A stretch of 64,000 nucleotides of DNA from the IMG/VR virus record IMGVR_UViG_3300023049_000387, positions 1 through 64,000 of that record; one strand, 5' to 3'. The stretch comes from an uncultured virus (IMG/VR IMGVR_UViG_3300023049_000387). Taxonomy: Duplodnaviria; Heunggongvirae; Uroviricota; Caudoviricetes. The notes beneath the pieces were generated by a model. It made no database searches. It was not told the DNA's origin and worked only from the letters and a program-made list of their open reading frames with translations. Numbering within the stretch: the first letter of the stretch is position 1; the number at the start of each line of letters is the position of its first letter. Below, in pieces: positions 12,031 to 18,105 of the stretch. The position numbers and the translations under genes were made by a program.

Positions 12031-12141
12031 TTGTGAGAAACAAATATTAGTTATATATTTGCACAGAACCTAAAATAATTTAAACTTTTAGTAAAAAAAA
12101 GAATATAAATAACCAAAGGAAGAAATAAAATTTAATATATA
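12031..12141 (+). promoter_or_regulatory. compound promoter region of tRNA cluster 3: TATATTTG (12054-12061), AAACTTT..TATAAA (12082-12109), TAATATATA (12133-12141)
   Basis: three recurring motif classes; homologous to 16740-16849. Confidence 0.6.
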
Positions 12142-12147
12142 ATAGTG

Positions 12148-12267
12148 ATGAAAAATTTAAACCTAAATACAAATAGAAACTTAACGCTCAATGTGGTGAA
12201 TATTATGTTATGTAATAGACCATCTAGGGGTTCTAGTGTATTTAATAAATTTCATCTTATGACATAG
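12148..12267 (+). CDS. attenuator leader peptide 2 (39 aa, MKNLNLNTNRNLTLNVVNIMLCNRPSRGSSVFNKFHLMT)
   Basis: codons 3-24 encode only N,L,T,R,V,I,M,C, the amino acids of the downstream array; contains antiterminator TCTAGGGGTT (12223-12232). Confidence 0.78.
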   Translation: MKNLNLNTNRNLTLNVVNIMLCNRPSRGSSVFNKFHLMT

Positions 12268-12290
12268 TGAAATAAAAAATACAAATAACT

Positions 12291-12330
12291 AAAACCCCTA
12301 GAAATGAAAATTCTAGGGGTTTTTTTGTTT
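12291..12330 (+). terminator. attenuator terminator upstream of tRNA cluster
   Basis: AAAACCCCTAGAA-loop-TTCTAGGGGTTTT + T tract ending just before the first tRNA. Confidence 0.88.
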
Positions 12331-12333
12331 TAT

Positions 12334-12418
12334 GCTAGTGTGGTGGAATGGTAGACACGAGGGATTCAAAATCCTTTAATCAGAAATGATTATATGAGTT
12401 CAAATCTCATCATTAGTA
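12334..12418 (+). tRNA. tRNA-Leu(CAA)
   Basis: anticodon arm AGGGA-TTCAAAA-TCCTT, long variable arm. Confidence 0.85.
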
Positions 12419-12430
12419 CATATATTACAA

Positions 12431-12504
12431 TCCTCGTTAGCTCAGTGGTCAGAAGCTCTCGTCTGTTAAACGAAAGGTCGGTGGTTCGAATCCACCACGA
12501 GGAG
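12431..12504 (+). tRNA. tRNA-Asn(GTT)
   Basis: acceptor TCCTCGT/ACGAGGA, anticodon loop CTGTTAA. Confidence 0.9.
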
Positions 12505-12512
12505 CAAATAAT

Positions 12513-12594
12513 CGGCATATACCAGCCCAAGCTGATACCTTGGAGAACTGTAGTTGGTAAGTTGAAAACGTAGGTTCGAGTCCTACTGTGCCGA
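12513..12594 (+). tRNA. non-canonical tRNA-Ile(GAT) lacking a D-arm at the normal position
   Basis: acceptor CGGCATA/TGTGCCG, anticodon arm CCAAG-CTGATAC-CTTGG only 7 nt after the acceptor, perfect T-arm. Confidence 0.7.
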
Positions 12595-12608
12595 CTTTTA
12601 TGACACTT

Positions 12609-12693
12609 GTCGGAGTGGTGGAATGGCAGACACGCTGGGTTTAAGCTCCAGTGGGCAGTGATGTCCGTGAGGGTTCGAGTCCCTTCTCCGATA
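12609..12693 (+). tRNA. tRNA-Leu(TAA)
   Basis: anticodon arm CTGGG-TTTAAGC-TCCAG, long variable arm. Confidence 0.9.
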
Positions 12694-12702
12694 CGAATAA
12701 AT

Positions 12703-12792
12703 GCCAGTGTGGTGAAATTGGATGAAACACGCTAGTCTTAGGAACTAGTACCCAAGAGGTAAACATTGTCGGTTCGAGTCCGACCACTGGTA
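12703..12792 (+). tRNA. tRNA-Leu(TAG)
   Basis: anticodon arm CTAGT-CTTAGGA-ACTAG, long variable arm. Confidence 0.9.
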
Positions 12793-12802
12793 CAAAATAA
12801 AT

Positions 12803-12883
12803 GCCTTAGTAGTCCCGATTGTCTTCTAAACAATTAAGGGTAATTGGAAGCTGAAAATATAGGTTCGAGTCCTATCTAGGGTA
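12803..12883 (+). tRNA. non-canonical tRNA-Arg(TCT) lacking a D-arm at the normal position
   Basis: acceptor GCCTTAG/CTAGGGT, anticodon arm ATTGT-CTTCTAA-ACAAT, perfect T-arm; same layout as 12513-12594. Confidence 0.7.
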
Positions 12884-12892
12884 CAAATAAAA

Positions 12893-12966
12893 AGTTCTGT
12901 AATTCAGGGGTTCAGAATGCTTCCCTTACAAGGAAGAAGTCGTTGGTTCGAATCCAACCAGAACTA
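12893..12966 (+). tRNA. tRNA-Val(TAC)
   Basis: anticodon arm CTTCC-CTTACAA-GGAAG. Confidence 0.9.
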
Positions 12967-12972
12967 CAAAAT

Positions 12973-13044
12973 GTACCTATGACCGAGTGATTTAGGTAGG
13001 TGGCTGCAACCCATCGTACGGGGGTTTGAATCCCTCTAGGTACT
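12973..13044 (+). tRNA. tRNA-Cys(GCA)
   Basis: anticodon loop CTGCAAC, U73 discriminator. Confidence 0.85.
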
Positions 13045-13051
13045 CTAATAT

Positions 13052-13124
13052 GCTGACATAGCTCAATTGGTAGAGCATTTGATTTGTAATCAAAAGGTTG
13101 TGGGTTCGAAGCCCTCTGTCAGCT
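13052..13124 (+). tRNA. tRNA-Thr(TGT)
   Basis: anticodon arm TTTGA-TTTGTAA-TCAAA. Confidence 0.9.
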
Positions 13125-13134
13125 CTGAAAAAAT

Positions 13135-13224
13135 GCACTAGTGGCGAAGTGGATGAAACGCATCAGACTTAAAATCTGATACCCTTTGAGGTGAACAACG
13201 TGGGTTCAAATCCCACCTGGTGTA
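13135..13224 (+). tRNA. tRNA-Leu(TAA)
   Basis: anticodon arm TCAGA-CTTAAAA-TCTGA, long variable arm. Confidence 0.88.
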
Positions 13225-13228
13225 CTAA

Positions 13229-13314
13229 ATCGCTATGAACAGATGTGGTAATTGTGCTTGGCTCATATCCAAGTTAGAGAAATCTTATTGTTGGTTCAAG
13301 TCCAACTAGCGGTA
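13229..13314 (+). tRNA. tRNA with CAT anticodon (Met/Ile2) and enlarged variable arm
   Basis: anticodon arm CTTGG-CTCATAT-CCAAG; extra arm TTAGAGAAATCTTATT. Confidence 0.8.
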
Positions 13315-13316
13315 CA

Positions 13317-13357
13317 AAAAAAGAGGGGATATAATTAATTATATCCCCTCTTTTTTA
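13317..13357. terminator. bidirectional intrinsic terminator
   Basis: AAAAAAGAGGGGATATAAT/ATTATATCCCCTCTTTTTT between convergent units. Confidence 0.85.
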
Positions 13358-14470: not shown

Positions 14471-16696
14471 TTAGAAATTTTCGTTTAATGGAAAATTCTT
14501 TAGATAAATTTTATCATTGGCATTATCACCAAATATTAAATATTTAGAGTCATCACCCAATATATATTGATTCAATACTTTATTATGAGCTTCCTCTGGG
14601 ATAACATCACTAAAAAGTCTTATGTTAGTAACCTTCATATCAGATGCTAATATCTTAGGATTTTTATCAATATTATACTGAATAGGTTCTATGTCTTGTT
14701 TATTATAATACTCTTTTCTCAAAATTGTACTATTAAGCATTTTTGCATCATCTTCTATATCTACATTTCTCTTATATATATAATTTTCAATATACCTTTG
14801 ACGTTGGTTTAAATTTAGCACATAACAATACCAAGTATCTTCCTCTAATGCATCACTTTCCCCATCATTTAACTCAAATATATATTCTTCTTCATTCATA
14901 GTAACTGTAATGCTATCATTCTTTAGACTAGACTTCCATCCTTTATTAATCCCATTGTCATAAACGTCCATAAATTTATAAACTTCATCTTTTATGTAGT
15001 TATTTATACTAAACCAAACTTGTAATGATATGTTGTCAGATACATCAAGTATAGAATTAAAGTTCTTGTATTGAACTGCCAAACCATTATATTCTACTGT
15101 TGATAAATCATAACAATATTTAGATATTATGGTTGTTGAGTTTTCAATAAGTTCTTTATCAACTTCAGAAAAATACTCAAGTCTAATAGGATCTCTAGAT
15201 AAAGGTTGTTGTTCCTTCTTATTAGCAATTGACTTCTTATCTTGTTCTATCTCCTTTCCAAATAGTTCATCAATAGTAGTATTCTTTGTTAACTCACTAA
15301 TGCTATTAGAAATTTCTGGAATATCTGTCTGAACATTTGATTTTTGAGAATATTTTTTGAGAATAAGTTTATAATAAACAGCCGCATTATTAAAATTTCT
15401 AAACTGTTGAGCATGGTCAACTTGATACATTCTATTAACTTGACAAAAATGTATAAAATCTTCTTTAGAAGGTCTTCTCTGGACACCAAACATTTCCTTA
15501 AATTGTTTCTTTGTTATATGTGCTTCCATTGAATCAAATAATCCTAAATCGAATATGTTCATCTTAATCTGTGAGTCTGGAAAATTATTACCATCAATAG
15601 ATATTTTTAAATCTCCCTCACACACAACATTATATAATTGATATTCATTAAGTGTGTGGTCTTGACCATTGGCATCTGGATCAGTTGCATAATAAGTTAC
15701 TTTATGTCCTAGTACTTGTTCAGAGTCTGTACTTAATTTTTCATATAGTTGAGTAGCTTGTGTTTGTTCATAAGGATTATATAACTGAGCCTTGTCTGTA
15801 TCTGTCATTGGTTTAAATGCATCATTCTCACCTTCACAGTTGTTACCTGTTGTGTTTAAATTATCATTCATTATATACTTACCTTCACTGTTTATATAGC
15901 CTATCTGGTTGGATTTACAACATTCTCTTATCCCAAATAGATTACTCTTTTTATAATCTTCCTTAACATTTTGAAAATCTCCTACTAAATTTATGTCTTG
16001 AAACCTAGACACTGATCCCGATTTGTTATCAATAAGATATTCTATTTCAAAGAAACGTATAGGGTTTATCCTTTTGGTTGTTATATTTTCTTTAGTCAAT
16101 GGTTCCCATTCAGTCCAAGTTCTAGAGTTATCTTGTGAGAATCTATACTTTATACTTATGTCATCTAAACTAGTTATATTAATGATTTGTATATCTTCTA
16201 ATTTAAAAACTTTATATATGAAAGGTGCTTTTACTATCTTAGAATCACCTGGCTCTATATAAAATGCTTGTTCACCATTGAATTGTATTTCTTGTCTATC
16301 TATAATACCTTCTAATTTATATTCTAGTATTCTTATACTACCTATTTCAGAAGTTCCCTTTCTCACCCATTTAATTTCAAGGTACATACTATCTAGTGTA
16401 TCAACAACTGGGAAGTTGGTTATATTAATATTTAAGTCTAACCACTCAGACCATGTGTTACCATCTCTGGAAACTCTATAATATTGTAAGAGAAATCTAT
16501 CTTGTTTAAGACCTAAACTATCGTATGTAAATCTTTTGAACTTTTCCACATTATCTAACTTATCAAAAGATAATATGTATTCATCATTGATAGAATTTAG
16601 ATAAGGAGTTTCATCTTCAACACCAGTTGCCATCACGTCATATTCATCTGATATAGTTATTATTCCTTTCTCAAAATCTGAGTTTATATTTACCAT
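14471..16696 (-). CDS. virion structural protein with T4 gp14-like neck domain
   Basis: central QVLGHKVTYY..PSKEDFIHF..MYQV..YYKLILKKY segment recalls gp14-like head completion proteins; late motif upstream. Confidence 0.55.
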   Translation of the reverse strand: MVNINSDFEKGIITISDEYDVMATGVEDETPYLNSINDEYILSFDKLDNVEKFKRFTYDSLGLKQDRFLLQYYRVSRDGNTWSEWLDLNINITNFPVVDTLDSMYLEIKWVRKGTSEIGSIRILEYKLEGIIDRQEIQFNGEQAFYIEPGDSKIVKAPFIYKVFKLEDIQIINITSLDDISIKYRFSQDNSRTWTEWEPLTKENITTKRINPIRFFEIEYLIDNKSGSVSRFQDINLVGDFQNVKEDYKKSNLFGIRECCKSNQIGYINSEGKYIMNDNLNTTGNNCEGENDAFKPMTDTDKAQLYNPYEQTQATQLYEKLSTDSEQVLGHKVTYYATDPDANGQDHTLNEYQLYNVVCEGDLKISIDGNNFPDSQIKMNIFDLGLFDSMEAHITKKQFKEMFGVQRRPSKEDFIHFCQVNRMYQVDHAQQFRNFNNAAVYYKLILKKYSQKSNVQTDIPEISNSISELTKNTTIDELFGKEIEQDKKSIANKKEQQPLSRDPIRLEYFSEVDKELIENSTTIISKYCYDLSTVEYNGLAVQYKNFNSILDVSDNISLQVWFSINNYIKDEVYKFMDVYDNGINKGWKSSLKNDSITVTMNEEEYIFELNDGESDALEEDTWYCYVLNLNQRQRYIENYIYKRNVDIEDDAKMLNSTILRKEYYNKQDIEPIQYNIDKNPKILASDMKVTNIRLFSDVIPEEAHNKVLNQYILGDDSKYLIFGDNANDKIYLKNFPLNENF

Positions 16697-16739
16697 AACT
16701 CTATATATTAAAAAAGATTATTTTAATTTAAAAAAAACC

Positions 16740-16849
16740 TTGTATAAACCATTTATTTATATTATATTTGCATAGAAATAATATAATTCTAAACTTTTAT
16801 AAAAAAAAGTCTATAAATAACCATAGAGAGAAATAAAAGTTAATATATA
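16740..16849 (+). promoter_or_regulatory. compound promoter region of tRNA cluster 4
   Basis: TATATTTG 16763-16770, AAACTTT..TATAAA 16791-16817, TAATATATA 16841-16849. Confidence 0.6.
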
Positions 16850-16856
16850 AAACATA

Positions 16857-16961
16857 ATGAAAAATTTAAACTTAAACATAGTAGTTAACCCTCAACCCCA
16901 AGTTGATATCGATCAGGATTCTGATACGAAAGGTGCTAACTATGTTTTAAATTTAAGTTGA
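16857..16961 (+). CDS. attenuator leader peptide 3 (34 aa, MKNLNLNIVVNPQPQVDIDQDSDTKGANYVLNLS)
   Basis: PQPQVDIDQDSD matches downstream Asp/Gln/Pro tRNAs; antiterminator GCTAACTATGTTTT (16935-16948). Confidence 0.78.
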   Translation: MKNLNLNIVVNPQPQVDIDQDSDTKGANYVLNLS

Positions 16962-16977
16962 TATTTAAATAATAAAA

Positions 16978-17023
16978 ACAAAAACTCGGTTAGTCTTTTA
17001 GATTAACCGAGTTTTTTTTGTTT
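16978..17023 (+). terminator. attenuator terminator upstream of tRNA cluster
   Basis: AAAACTCGGTTAGTCT-TTT-AGATTAACCGAGTTTT + T tract. Confidence 0.88.
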
Positions 17024-17027
17024 ATAT

Positions 17028-17100
17028 AGCTCTGAGGTCAAATGGTTAAGATGTACGTCTGTCTCACGTAACGGAGTGGGTTCGATTCCCATCAGAGCTG
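17028..17100 (+). tRNA. tRNA-Asp(GTC)
   Basis: anticodon arm TACGT-CTGTCTC-ACGTA, G73. Confidence 0.88.
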
Positions 17101-17112
17101 CTAATATTAAAT

Positions 17113-17186
17113 TGCCCCATAGTGTAATTGGCTAACACATCTGGTTTTGGTCCAGAAGATTGCAGGTTCGAACCCTGCTGGGGTAA
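17113..17186 (+). tRNA. tRNA-Gln(TTG)
   Basis: anticodon arm TCTGG-TTTTGGT-CCAGA. Confidence 0.9.
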
Positions 17187-17195
17187 CAAGTTAAT

Positions 17196-17269
17196 CGAGA
17201 AGTGACTAAGGTTATAAGCACGGGTGCATTGGAGGCATCAGTTAGCAGGTTCGATTCCTGTCTTCTCGA
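17196..17269 (+). tRNA. tRNA-Pro(TGG)
   Basis: acceptor CGAGAAG/CTTCTCG, anticodon loop ATTGGAG; atypical D-arm. Confidence 0.75.
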
Positions 17270-17281
17270 CAAATTTTTAAT

Positions 17282-17353
17282 AGTCCATTAGTGTAAAGGT
17301 TATCATTTCCGACTGTCTCTCGGAAGATAGGGGTTCGAATCCCCTATGGACTG
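17282..17353 (+). tRNA. tRNA-Asp(GTC)
   Basis: anticodon arm TCCGA-CTGTCTC-TCGGA. Confidence 0.9.
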
Positions 17354-17359
17354 CAAAAA

Positions 17360-17433
17360 TGCTCTATAGTGTAATTGGTTAACACGTCTGGCTTTGGTCC
17401 AGGAGATTGTAGGTTCGAACCCTACTGGGGCAA
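17360..17433 (+). tRNA. tRNA-Gln(TTG)
   Basis: anticodon arm TCTGG-CTTTGGT-CCAGG. Confidence 0.9.
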
Positions 17434-17442
17434 CAAGTATAG

Positions 17443-17515
17443 CGAGGGTGTAGTGTAATCTGGTAACACACGATGTTTGGGACATCGAATTGCTGTTCGA
17501 ATCGGACATCTTCGA
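17443..17515 (+). tRNA. tRNA-Pro(TGG), apparent 8-bp acceptor and short T-stem
   Basis: CGAGGGTG/CATCTTCG, anticodon arm CGATG-TTTGGGA-CATCG. Confidence 0.78.
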
Positions 17516-17652
17516 CAAAAATTATAGTTAAAACTAAATGTTGTTAATAAGCAACATTTTAGCACTTTTTGTTGTTAATAAGCAACAAAAAAAATTAACA
17601 CAAAAAACAACATATAATTCAAACTAAACTGTTATATTTGAATATATAGTAT

Positions 17653-18105
17653 ATGGATCGTATATATAAAATTAAGTTTGATGTTACTGATGAAGAGTTA
17701 GATGACCTATTTATGTATTTCTCTGATGAAGACCTAGATGATGTTGAAGAGTTAGAGGCTGAGGCATATTTCTATTTTCACGAAGAAGGTAACTATGTAT
17801 GTTATTTAATAACTACTGAGGTAGAGATGAGAACTTACGTGGGTGTTATAGATAAAAACAAAATAAATATATATGTTAAAGATTTTTCCGATAGAATATT
17901 AAATTCAACTGTTAATCTAGAAGATAACTTAAGACATAACATCGATAAGGAAAATTGTGAAGACTTTGAAGACTTCATTATTTGCCTAAATGAATGGGTT
18001 CTTGGAAAATTAGATATAGACTTTGTATTAGATAGGATATCTAGCGTAGGAATTGATAATCTAACAGAAAATGAAAAATACTTTTTAAACTCATATAAAA
18101 TATGA
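17653..18105 (+). CDS. acidic hypothetical protein
   Basis: ORF; C-terminal LD.I...GI..LT..EK.FL helical motif. Confidence 0.65.
   Translation: MDRIYKIKFDVTDEELDDLFMYFSDEDLDDVEELEAEAYFYFHEEGNYVCYLITTEVEMRTYVGVIDKNKINIYVKDFSDRILNSTVNLEDNLRHNIDKENCEDFEDFIICLNEWVLGKLDIDFVLDRISSVGIDNLTENEKYFLNSYKI

Follow-up and report, generated by a model that had tools for sequence, protein, structure and literature searches.

In the DNA of an uncultured lake virus of the Caudoviricetes (IMG/VR record IMGVR_UViG_3300023049_000387), a short open reading frame (ORF) rich in Pro, Gln and Asp codons and an intrinsic terminator stand in front of a tRNA array of the order Asp-Gln-Pro-Asp-Gln-Pro. This arrangement is most likely a ribosome-mediated (leader-peptide) transcription attenuator, in which the regulated genes are the tRNA genes themselves; the phage probably makes Pro, Gln and Asp tRNAs when ribosomes run short of them. 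The analysed contig is AT-rich phage DNA of 78,802 bases (78.8 kb), with a G+C content of 29%; the window, which covers positions 1–64,000 of the record, contains the whole element. Between positions 16739 and 17516, the plus strand carries, in order, a promoter-like CTTG-N20-TATATTTG sequence, an untranslated stretch of ∼86 nt, the ORF, a 19-nt spacer, a hairpin followed by eight T residues (T8) and six tRNA genes. All parts of this unit are on this strand.

The leader ORF (16857–16961) is 34 codons in length; it ends with a TGA stop and encodes the peptide MKNLNLNIVVNPQPQVDIDQDSDTKGANYVLNLS. Two hallmarks of attenuators are thus present, namely a short ORF in the 5′ leader of the regulated genes and the enrichment in that ORF of regulatory codons cognate to the regulated function. 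Codons 12–23 (16890–16925, PQPQVDIDQDSD), which we refer to as the sensor block, read P Q P Q V D I D Q D S D. The initial annotation, made from the letters of the DNA alone, had claimed that nine of these twelve codons specify Pro, Gln or Asp and that the Pro codons are CCT and CCC; our count agrees, giving two Pro, three Gln and four Asp codons. In the long ORFs of the contig, the three residues together make up 12.4% of the codons. When all six frames of the contig were scanned, only one of 69,730 stop-free windows held nine Pro, Gln or Asp codons per twelve, and this one is the sensor block, which precedes the only Asp/Gln/Pro array of the contig. Two diverged tRNAs each for Asp, Gln and Pro had also been proposed; between the copies, 52 of 76 (Asp), 66 of 75 (Gln) and 50 of 80 (Pro) aligned columns are identical.

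An intrinsic terminator (segments 3 and 4, 16981–17019) is located between the ORF and the regulated genes, as it is in attenuators. Its 5′ arm (16981–16996) and 3′ arm (17000–17015) enclose a loop of three residues (16997–16999), and the T8 tract spans 17012–17019. The hairpin (16981–17015) contains 16 bp, with a folding energy of −19.6 kcal/mol, and the terminator ends 8 nt before the first tRNA gene. Because the ORF, the terminator and the first tRNA follow each other so closely, there is no room for a separate promoter. The terminator was not spelled out in the initial annotation; the second of the two pairing segments described there is its 5′ arm. The first of them is the antiterminator strand (segment 2, 16935–16948, GCTAACTATGTTTT), which has the core GCTAACT. 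As had been stated, it can pair with AAAACTCGGTTAGT (16981–16994) at 12 of 14 positions, two of which are G:U, and the duplex has an energy of −10.9 kcal/mol. An antiterminator segment that follows the regulatory codons and pairs with the 5′ arm of the terminator, a further hallmark of attenuators, is therefore present as well, with support from this single unit that is borderline. The terminator arms of other leader classes do not pair equally well with the Pro/Gln/Asp leader (0 of 18).

Using a degenerate pattern over the sensor block alone, we collected 67 metagenome loci with 55 distinct sequences. One false hit in a large protein was removed, leaving 54 leaders; five further loci were truncated by contig ends. 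Homologous leaders in front of arrays lacking Asp, Gln and Pro tRNAs had been named as the case that would speak against the proposal. We looked for such a case and found none among the 49 of the 54 leaders that have at least one tRNA behind them in the fetched DNA. The first tRNA is Pro, Asp or Gln behind all 49 leaders, and so are 194 of the 199 typed tRNAs, every array containing some. The expected change of the leaders with array content was also seen. Where the Gln tRNAs form a separate array, this array has its own second leader (MTT..QQQQQQ..), and arrays of Pro, Gln, Lys, Tyr, Thr and Gly tRNAs are preceded by leaders built of those six residues. Outside the sensor block and the pairing segments, the leader peptides are not conserved. 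In an alignment of 47 homologs (A3), Pro and Gln codons differ at their third bases, with all four CCN codons represented for Pro, and the gaps read in the ORF part are multiples of 3, so that the frame is kept.

The same 47 homologs support both pairings of the switch. The terminator pairing is found in 84.5% of the cells, compared to at most 55.5% when the pairing is slid; 19 cells are changed on both sides, a number reached by 0 of 500 shuffles, and the pair 160–184 covaries, being AU in 23 sequences and GC in 15. The antiterminator pairing (GCTAACT../..AGTTAGT) is found in 83.2% of the cells, compared to at most 52% when slid, and its covariation score was also reached by 0 of 500 shuffles. 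In homologs with a replaced stem, the GTTAGT core of segment 3 is retained and sits in the loop. A search of 185,579 species genomes with the leader pattern gave two hits, which are of 0.55–0.56 GC, have no tRNA nearby and were taken as chance. The hairpin core GTTAGTC..GATTAAC was tried as a search pattern for IMG/VR and given up as too unspecific; 0 of 116 loci among the matches listed has a tRNA within 200 nt behind it.

The arrangement is not confined to this array. Of eight strong terminator-like sites on the plus strand of the contig, three directly precede its three complete tRNA arrays, and at all three arrays a short ORF ends 19–23 nt upstream of the terminator. The closest public records are LR745206 and LR756502, which have been described as phages of >630 kb from a subsurface sample and a freshwater lake (PMC9723777). 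Each of these megaphages contains seven leader–terminator–array units: a His/Phe/Lys/Trp leader precedes His, Phe, Trp and Lys tRNAs, a Ser/Arg leader precedes Arg and Ser tRNAs, a Tyr/Glu leader precedes Glu and Tyr tRNAs, and a poly-Gln leader (MTTSFQQQQQQQINRTD) precedes a separate Gln array; the remaining units have an Ile/Gly/Ala leader, a Leu/Asn/Thr/Val/Met leader and a Pro/Asp homolog of the Pro/Gln/Asp leader. In both megaphages, the true leader–array pairing is the single best of 5,040 permutations.

For a quantitative comparison, 24 units were chosen by hand; L146 and L156 were excluded as identical to the window, and weak hairpins without a following array were left out. Of the 661 leader residues in this set, 292 are cognate to the following array, compared to a shuffle mean of 127.4 (sd 16.9), and the observed value was reached in 0 of 100,000 shuffles; 83 of 84 array amino-acid kinds are present in their own leader. 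An independent set came from 15 further tRNA regions of five IMG/VR contigs, in which a script picked 18 units, one of them spurious. Here, the cognate residues number 238 of 491, compared to 118.6 (sd 14.4) in the shuffles, none of which (0 of 100,000) reached the observed value, and 65 of 67 array amino-acid kinds occur in their own leader. In this second set, a leader MNTVFNIFDFNFEAAEADF.. is followed by Phe, Glu, Asp and Ala tRNAs, a leader MKTTTININVITITNCVNNTT.. by Asn, Ile, Val, Cys and Thr tRNAs, and a merged Tyr/Glu/Ile/Thr/Gly/Ala array has the merged leader MTTITNITIAIEAIGGYEAGY... Sequence comparison can make no firmer case for the match between leader and array. When the same pipeline was applied to phage T5 (23 tRNAs) and Rhodococcus phage Francesca (18 tRNAs) as controls, no terminator was found within 250 nt upstream of any tRNA.

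The geometry of the switch is also shared among the 24 units. The distance from the end of the hairpin to the first tRNA is 5–22 nt in 19 units and 64–235 nt in the other five. In all units, the last cognate codon is followed by the start of segment 2 at a distance of −3 to 12 nt; in 21 of them, the segment ends within the ORF, whereas in the three poly-Gln leaders it extends 9–11 nt beyond the first base of the stop codon. A distance of 18–33 nt separates the stop codon from the hairpin. Duplexes of leaders with their own terminator arms have a mean energy of −10.1 kcal/mol, compared to −7.4 kcal/mol with arms of other classes (Wilcoxon p 1.5e-4, for units that are not independent).

The cognate codons are in the frame of the ORF. 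Over the 24 units, 292 were counted in this frame, compared to 128 and 83 in the other two frames and 105–145 on the reverse strand. Of the 292 codons, 266 are readable by the anticodons of their own array under strict wobble rules, and 284 if four-way wobble by U34 is allowed. The choice among Arg codons is telling. Ahead of Arg(ACG/UCG) tRNAs, 10 of 12 Arg codons in the leaders are CGN, and ahead of Arg(UCU/CCU) tRNAs, 9 of 9 are AGR, while the background in the long ORFs of the contig is 66 CGN and 614 AGR. Since the Arg codon families of the leaders follow the anticodons of the arrays, sensing appears to be at the codon level, at least for Arg. The suggestion of the initial annotation that sensing may be at the amino-acid level rather than the codon level is thus only partly right. 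For Pro, all four CCN codons found in the homologs would need four-way wobble by a U34 tRNA.

In addition to tRNA arrays, the module is also found in front of aminoacyl-tRNA synthetase (aaRS) genes. Six of six full-size synthetase genes examined in LR745206 and LR756502 are preceded by a leader and a terminator, and each leader has a cognate run: MKTMTINNRNRLTDII (NNRN) for AsnRS, ..LNDDR.. and ..LKDDR.. for two AspRS, ..TIIIIR.. for IleRS, ..NILLLPLT for LeuRS and ..NLVVVNVSV for ValRS (L005 3876–3979; L244 1525–1639; L245 1900–2015; L246 1567–1665; L247, on the minus strand; L248 1415–1531). Of four short synthetase-like ORFs (∼210–250 aa), three have no leader, and the fourth (W01 345482) is missing from the ORFs that the script listed. 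Two further candidate class-I hits are at W01 32.6–33.6 kb and G001 258.7 kb.

Three matched leader–terminator–array units are also present in the cultured Cellulophaga phage phi4:1, which infects Cellulophaga baltica (NC_021788, 87.0–90.0 kb; L172 8566–8687, 9490–9662 and 11272–11419). The leader MKIQRLHLQELEQPIISGGTGV is followed by Pro, Glu, Gln, His, Leu, Leu and Arg tRNAs; a frame without ATG, ..KKIKVQLTKTGITVIDKTKGARAYLGDTVIG, by Ala, Lys, Ile, Gly, Met, Asp, Thr, Val, Arg and Met tRNAs; and the leader MKTNYCTYNNSNWSFSY.. by Tyr, Ser, Ser, Asn, Trp and Phe tRNAs. The frame without ATG is annotated as gp075, a hypothetical protein of phi4:1, and is probably a leader with a non-ATG start. 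In phi4:1, the first ATG is 4 nt after a TATGTTTG box, and the mRNA with this ATG may be leaderless.

Taken together, these observations suggest the following mechanism. The host RNA polymerase would start at a Bacteroidota-type promoter ∼86 nt upstream of the ORF and transcribe the 34-codon leader. When Pro-, Gln- and Asp-tRNAs are plentiful, the ribosome would pass the sensor block and reach the stop codon, covering segment 2 or freeing it too late; the terminator of segments 3 and 4 would form, and transcription would stop 8 nt short of the first tRNA. When any of the three aminoacyl-tRNAs is scarce, the ribosome would stall in codons 12–23, leaving segment 2 (GCTAACT..) free to pair with the 5′ arm of the terminator. 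The resulting antitermination would allow RNA polymerase to read into the Asp-Gln-Pro-Asp-Gln-Pro array, and the products would relieve the stall, which amounts to negative feedback on the supply of each tRNA set. A further pairing is predicted by single-sequence folding for the state without a ribosome: a segment 1 (16863–16889, codons 3–11) would pair with the 3′ end of the ORF, and the helix between segments 1 and 2 (−25.5 kcal/mol, z = −3.8), which encloses the sensor block, would act as an anti-antiterminator. In 22 of the 24 units, the corresponding fold has z ≤ −1.0.

Several observations weigh against this reading, or against parts of it. The duplex of segments 2 and 3 is modest (−10.9 compared to −19.6 kcal/mol for the terminator), and by itself it is borderline (z = −1.7; a share of 0.053 of 300 shuffles do equally well). 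Only 9 of the 24 units reach a shuffle share of ≤0.05 for this duplex, and the poly-Gln leaders and L141 are weak. The register of the predicted helix of segments 1 and 2 is not conserved; 56.5% of its cells are paired, compared to 61.5% in shuffles, and column-wise covariation gives it no support. From 6 homologs, RNAalifold recovered the terminator and nothing else; from 47, it additionally returned a 4-bp GATC helix. The sensor block is broken up by three non-cognate codons (Val, Ile and Ser), and its CCT and CCC codons require expanded wobble by the UGG anticodon. Natural variants from salt-lake runs change the block at 16902 (G>A, Val16 to Ile) and 16905 (G>A, Asp17 to Asn); at 17012, a variant has a T-tract shortened by one T. 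The four DNA runs compared gave nothing but strain variants. No matching tRNA was detected in the respective arrays for seven Ser AGT codons and one Arg AGA codon of the 24 units, and relatives in which the Gln array has its own leader still keep Gln codons in the first leader. Partial homology among the compared units means that their independence is overstated by the Wilcoxon and shuffle figures. For the tRNA blocks L160, L161, L169 and the first block of L164, a leader was not detected in the fetched DNA. In L164 and L169, which are IMG/VR contigs, ORFs resembling HNH endonucleases (CxxC...H motifs) end directly before tRNA genes, at two of these leaderless blocks; their position suggests homing-endonuclease insertions that split arrays from their leaders.

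Some of these points would also fit a different logic built from the same parts, in which the leader gives a general report on translation capacity, or in which the polarity is opposite and fast translation leads to read-through. The direction of the switch, with stalling giving read-through, is what we infer, and the modest duplex, the small number of individually significant units (9 of 24) and the unconserved register of segments 1 and 2 leave some weight to such schemes. However, a general sensor would need no leaders that track the array content for each amino acid, or for each Arg codon family. The stop codon is 18–33 nt away from the hairpin, and a terminating ribosome cannot mask the terminator from there. 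The conservation of the pairing of segments 2 and 3 in 47 homologs also speaks against such schemes, and we consider them unlikely.

Attenuation through a stalled ribosome also has to be compared to a role of the hairpin in RNA metabolism. An A-run and a T-run border the hairpin, which is scored as a terminator in either orientation, and RNase P must cut just downstream of it. It could thus be an element for pre-tRNA processing or stability, the leader acting on RNA decay instead of termination, or it could be a bidirectional insulator. However, no minus-strand gene reads into the hairpin, the upstream gene (14471–16696) pointing away from it, and a long T-tract and a G+C-rich base of the stem, as found here, typify terminators. 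Neither a processing element nor an insulator explains the conserved pairing with segment 2, and we give this possibility little credence.

Equally improbable in our view is sensing without a ribosome, in which the leader codons would pair directly with tRNA anticodons and stabilize the antiterminator, like a T-box with several specifiers. The elements do sense tRNA identity and use a terminator/antiterminator pair. However, when 16000–18000 was scanned against Rfam with E-values up to 1, only the tRNAs and three sub-threshold chance matches were returned; neither a T-box nor any other cis-regulatory family was above threshold. The cognate codons share a single frame that begins with an ATG and ends with a stop (292 compared to 128 and 83), the alignment gaps in the ORF keep that frame, and up to nine amino acids are sampled without a T-box-like scaffold. 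An ordinary small protein gene with its own terminator, next to independently transcribed tRNAs whose composition matches by chance, is hardly credible: one such ORF, phi4:1 gp075, is annotated as a hypothetical protein, but the T-tract is merely 8 nt from the first tRNA (and the hairpin 5–22 nt in 19 of 24 units), none of 100,000 shuffles attained the match in either of the two data sets, and the peptides are not conserved outside the sensor block and pairing segments. These last two readings were rejected on the single codon frame, the short gap to the tRNA, the shuffle results and the lack of an Rfam match.

Attenuation by the leader peptide has well-known precedents. In enterobacteria, the leader peptides trpL, hisL, leuL and pheL, the multivalent thrL and ilvL, and pheM, the leader of pheST, belong to attenuators. 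Like those of trp, his, leu, thr, ilv and pheST, the phage unit combines a short ORF rich in regulatory codons with a terminator/antiterminator alternative, and the supply of aminoacyl-tRNA would be sensed by the speed of the ribosome; the leaders linked to aaRS genes in the megaphages parallel pheM-pheST, which is a classical use of attenuation. Different from the amino-acid operon attenuators, the phage units regulate tRNA genes, so that the product is the molecule sensed; one leader samples 3 to 9 amino acids; the units are phage-encoded, modular and repeated for every array; and their promoter context is of the Bacteroidota type, without a Shine-Dalgarno sequence. Among the amino-acid operon leader families of Rfam (Trp, His, Leu and Thr leaders were considered), none was listed in the scan of 16000–18000. 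T-box riboswitches also sense tRNA status and place a terminator/antiterminator switch upstream of translation-supply genes; however, a T-box reads one specifier codon by direct RNA–tRNA contact without a ribosome, whereas the phage unit has a framed ORF with multiple codons.

The tRNA regions of T5 and Francesca are similar to those described here in that many clustered tRNA genes are interspersed with small ORFs. The closest regulated tRNA array that we found in print is the trn operon of Anabaena sp. PCC 7120, which contains 26 tRNA genes, is repressed by TrcR and is induced by translational stress (PMC10272220). In both cases, a spare tRNA array is turned on, or would be, when translation is in trouble; in contrast to the phage units, the trn operon is controlled by a protein repressor at the promoter and is not amino-acid specific, and the words leader, attenuat- and terminator are absent from that paper (PMC10272220). 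No description of leader-peptide control of tRNA genes was found in the full-text literature, with subscription journals outside the scope; such control is known for amino-acid genes and was not found in print for tRNA genes.

Discussions of phage tRNA genes have mostly centred on constitutive help with codon usage or on a decoy role against tRNA-cutting defences, and, to our knowledge, the control of their expression is largely unknown. Our results suggest that large Bacteroidota phages gauge the speed of decoding directly and switch on transcription of a tRNA set or a synthetase only when it is needed, which would extend textbook attenuation to the tRNAs themselves. They also account for small ORFs, such as gp075 of phi4:1, that are annotated as "hypothetical" within tRNA arrays. 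The units could serve synthetic biology as compact natural codon-specific sensors, and the presence of the design in cultured phi4:1 makes it directly testable at the bench. More speculatively, each tRNA array and synthetase gene behind its own codon-sampling leader might be part of a private, modular supply-on-demand network, by which the phage would monitor, per codon family, the ability of the host tRNA pool to decode its AT-rich genes and would replace exactly those tRNAs that fail through codon-usage mismatch, host shut-off or cleavage of host tRNAs by anti-phage anticodon nucleases. In such a network, the leaders would be natural sensors of tRNA-targeting defence and the diverged tRNA duplicates the nuclease-resistant spares released by them; we put this forward as a possibility that is less likely than not to hold.

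The promoter of the Pro/Gln/Asp unit, as read from the sequence, spans 16739–16770 and consists of CTTG (16739–16742), a 20-nt spacer and a "−7" box, TATATTTG (16763–16770). The Bacteroidota consensus is TTTG-N19-21-TAnnTTTG. A TAnnTTTG box is present within 120 nt upstream of the leader ATG in 19 of the 24 units, compared to 0.114 expected per 120 nt, and the TATATTTG box is kept in six homologs. Together with what is generally known of such promoters, these boxes point to transcription by a Bacteroidota host polymerase. A scan for sigma-70-type promoters gave 9 sites, compared to 7.7 expected, and was uninformative; the Bacteroidota-type box is more telling. The 5′ untranslated region also contains a conserved element, TTAATATATA (16840–16849), which is 7 nt before the ATG and falls in conserved columns of the homolog alignment A1. 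It may be a translation-initiation context. The same element is found at 12132–12141, ahead of the leader at 12148, so that it lies 7–9 nt before both leader ATGs; for the leader at 643 it is farther out, ∼21 nt upstream.

The other two complete units of the contig are of similar construction. In the second unit, the leader and terminator occupy 643–766 and the tRNAs 784–1110; the leader is MRTINNIAIIAIGKGKTHWLGIVM (MRTINNIAIIAIGKGK..), the terminator is at 741–766, and Ile(UAU), two Gly(UCC) and Ala(UGC) follow. The antiterminator of this unit, TGGCTGGG/CCCAGTCA, has an energy of −13.6 kcal/mol with z = −4.1. ARAGORN finds the Gly gene at ∼869–940 only under relaxed settings. The third unit (12054–13354) contains a TATATTTG box at 12054, a leader at 12148–12267 (MKNLNLNTNRNLTLNVVNIMLCN..), a terminator at 12291–12323 and 11 tRNAs, in the order Leu, Asn, Ile, Leu, Leu, Arg(UCU), Val, Cys, Thr, Leu and Met. 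A strong end-of-array terminator is located at 13319–13354. The tRNA at 12803–12883 was missed by ARAGORN and scores 39.1 bits with Rfam; it has the anticodon UCU (Arg), a nearly absent D arm and a long variable arm, and the leader ahead of it has AGA codons. Leader content helps to name odd tRNAs.

In the Asp-Gln-Pro array, ARAGORN and Rfam both identified tRNA-Asp (GUC) at 17028–17101 and 17282–17354, tRNA-Gln (UUG) at 17113–17187 and 17360–17434, and the second copy of tRNA-Pro (UGG) at 17443–17516. The diverged copy of tRNA-Pro (UGG) at 17196–17269 was missed by ARAGORN with default settings and scores 30.4 bits with Rfam, for which the gathering score is 29; its anticodon was read as UGG (Pro) from the loop ATTGGAG, and in relatives, tRNAs of this type are called as Pro(tgg). 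The anticodon loop of both tRNA-Asp copies is CTGTCTC, with the pyrimidine T at position 37, which is normally a purine; the homologs in LR745206 have CTGTCAC. This could be an altered anticodon loop of the type proposed to evade tRNA-cutting defences. Directly 3′ of the array, two hairpins of the TGTTGTTAATAAGCAACA type are found at 17527–17600, and they may be the terminators of the array. One strain variant lacks 31 bases (17538–17570) in this hairpin region.

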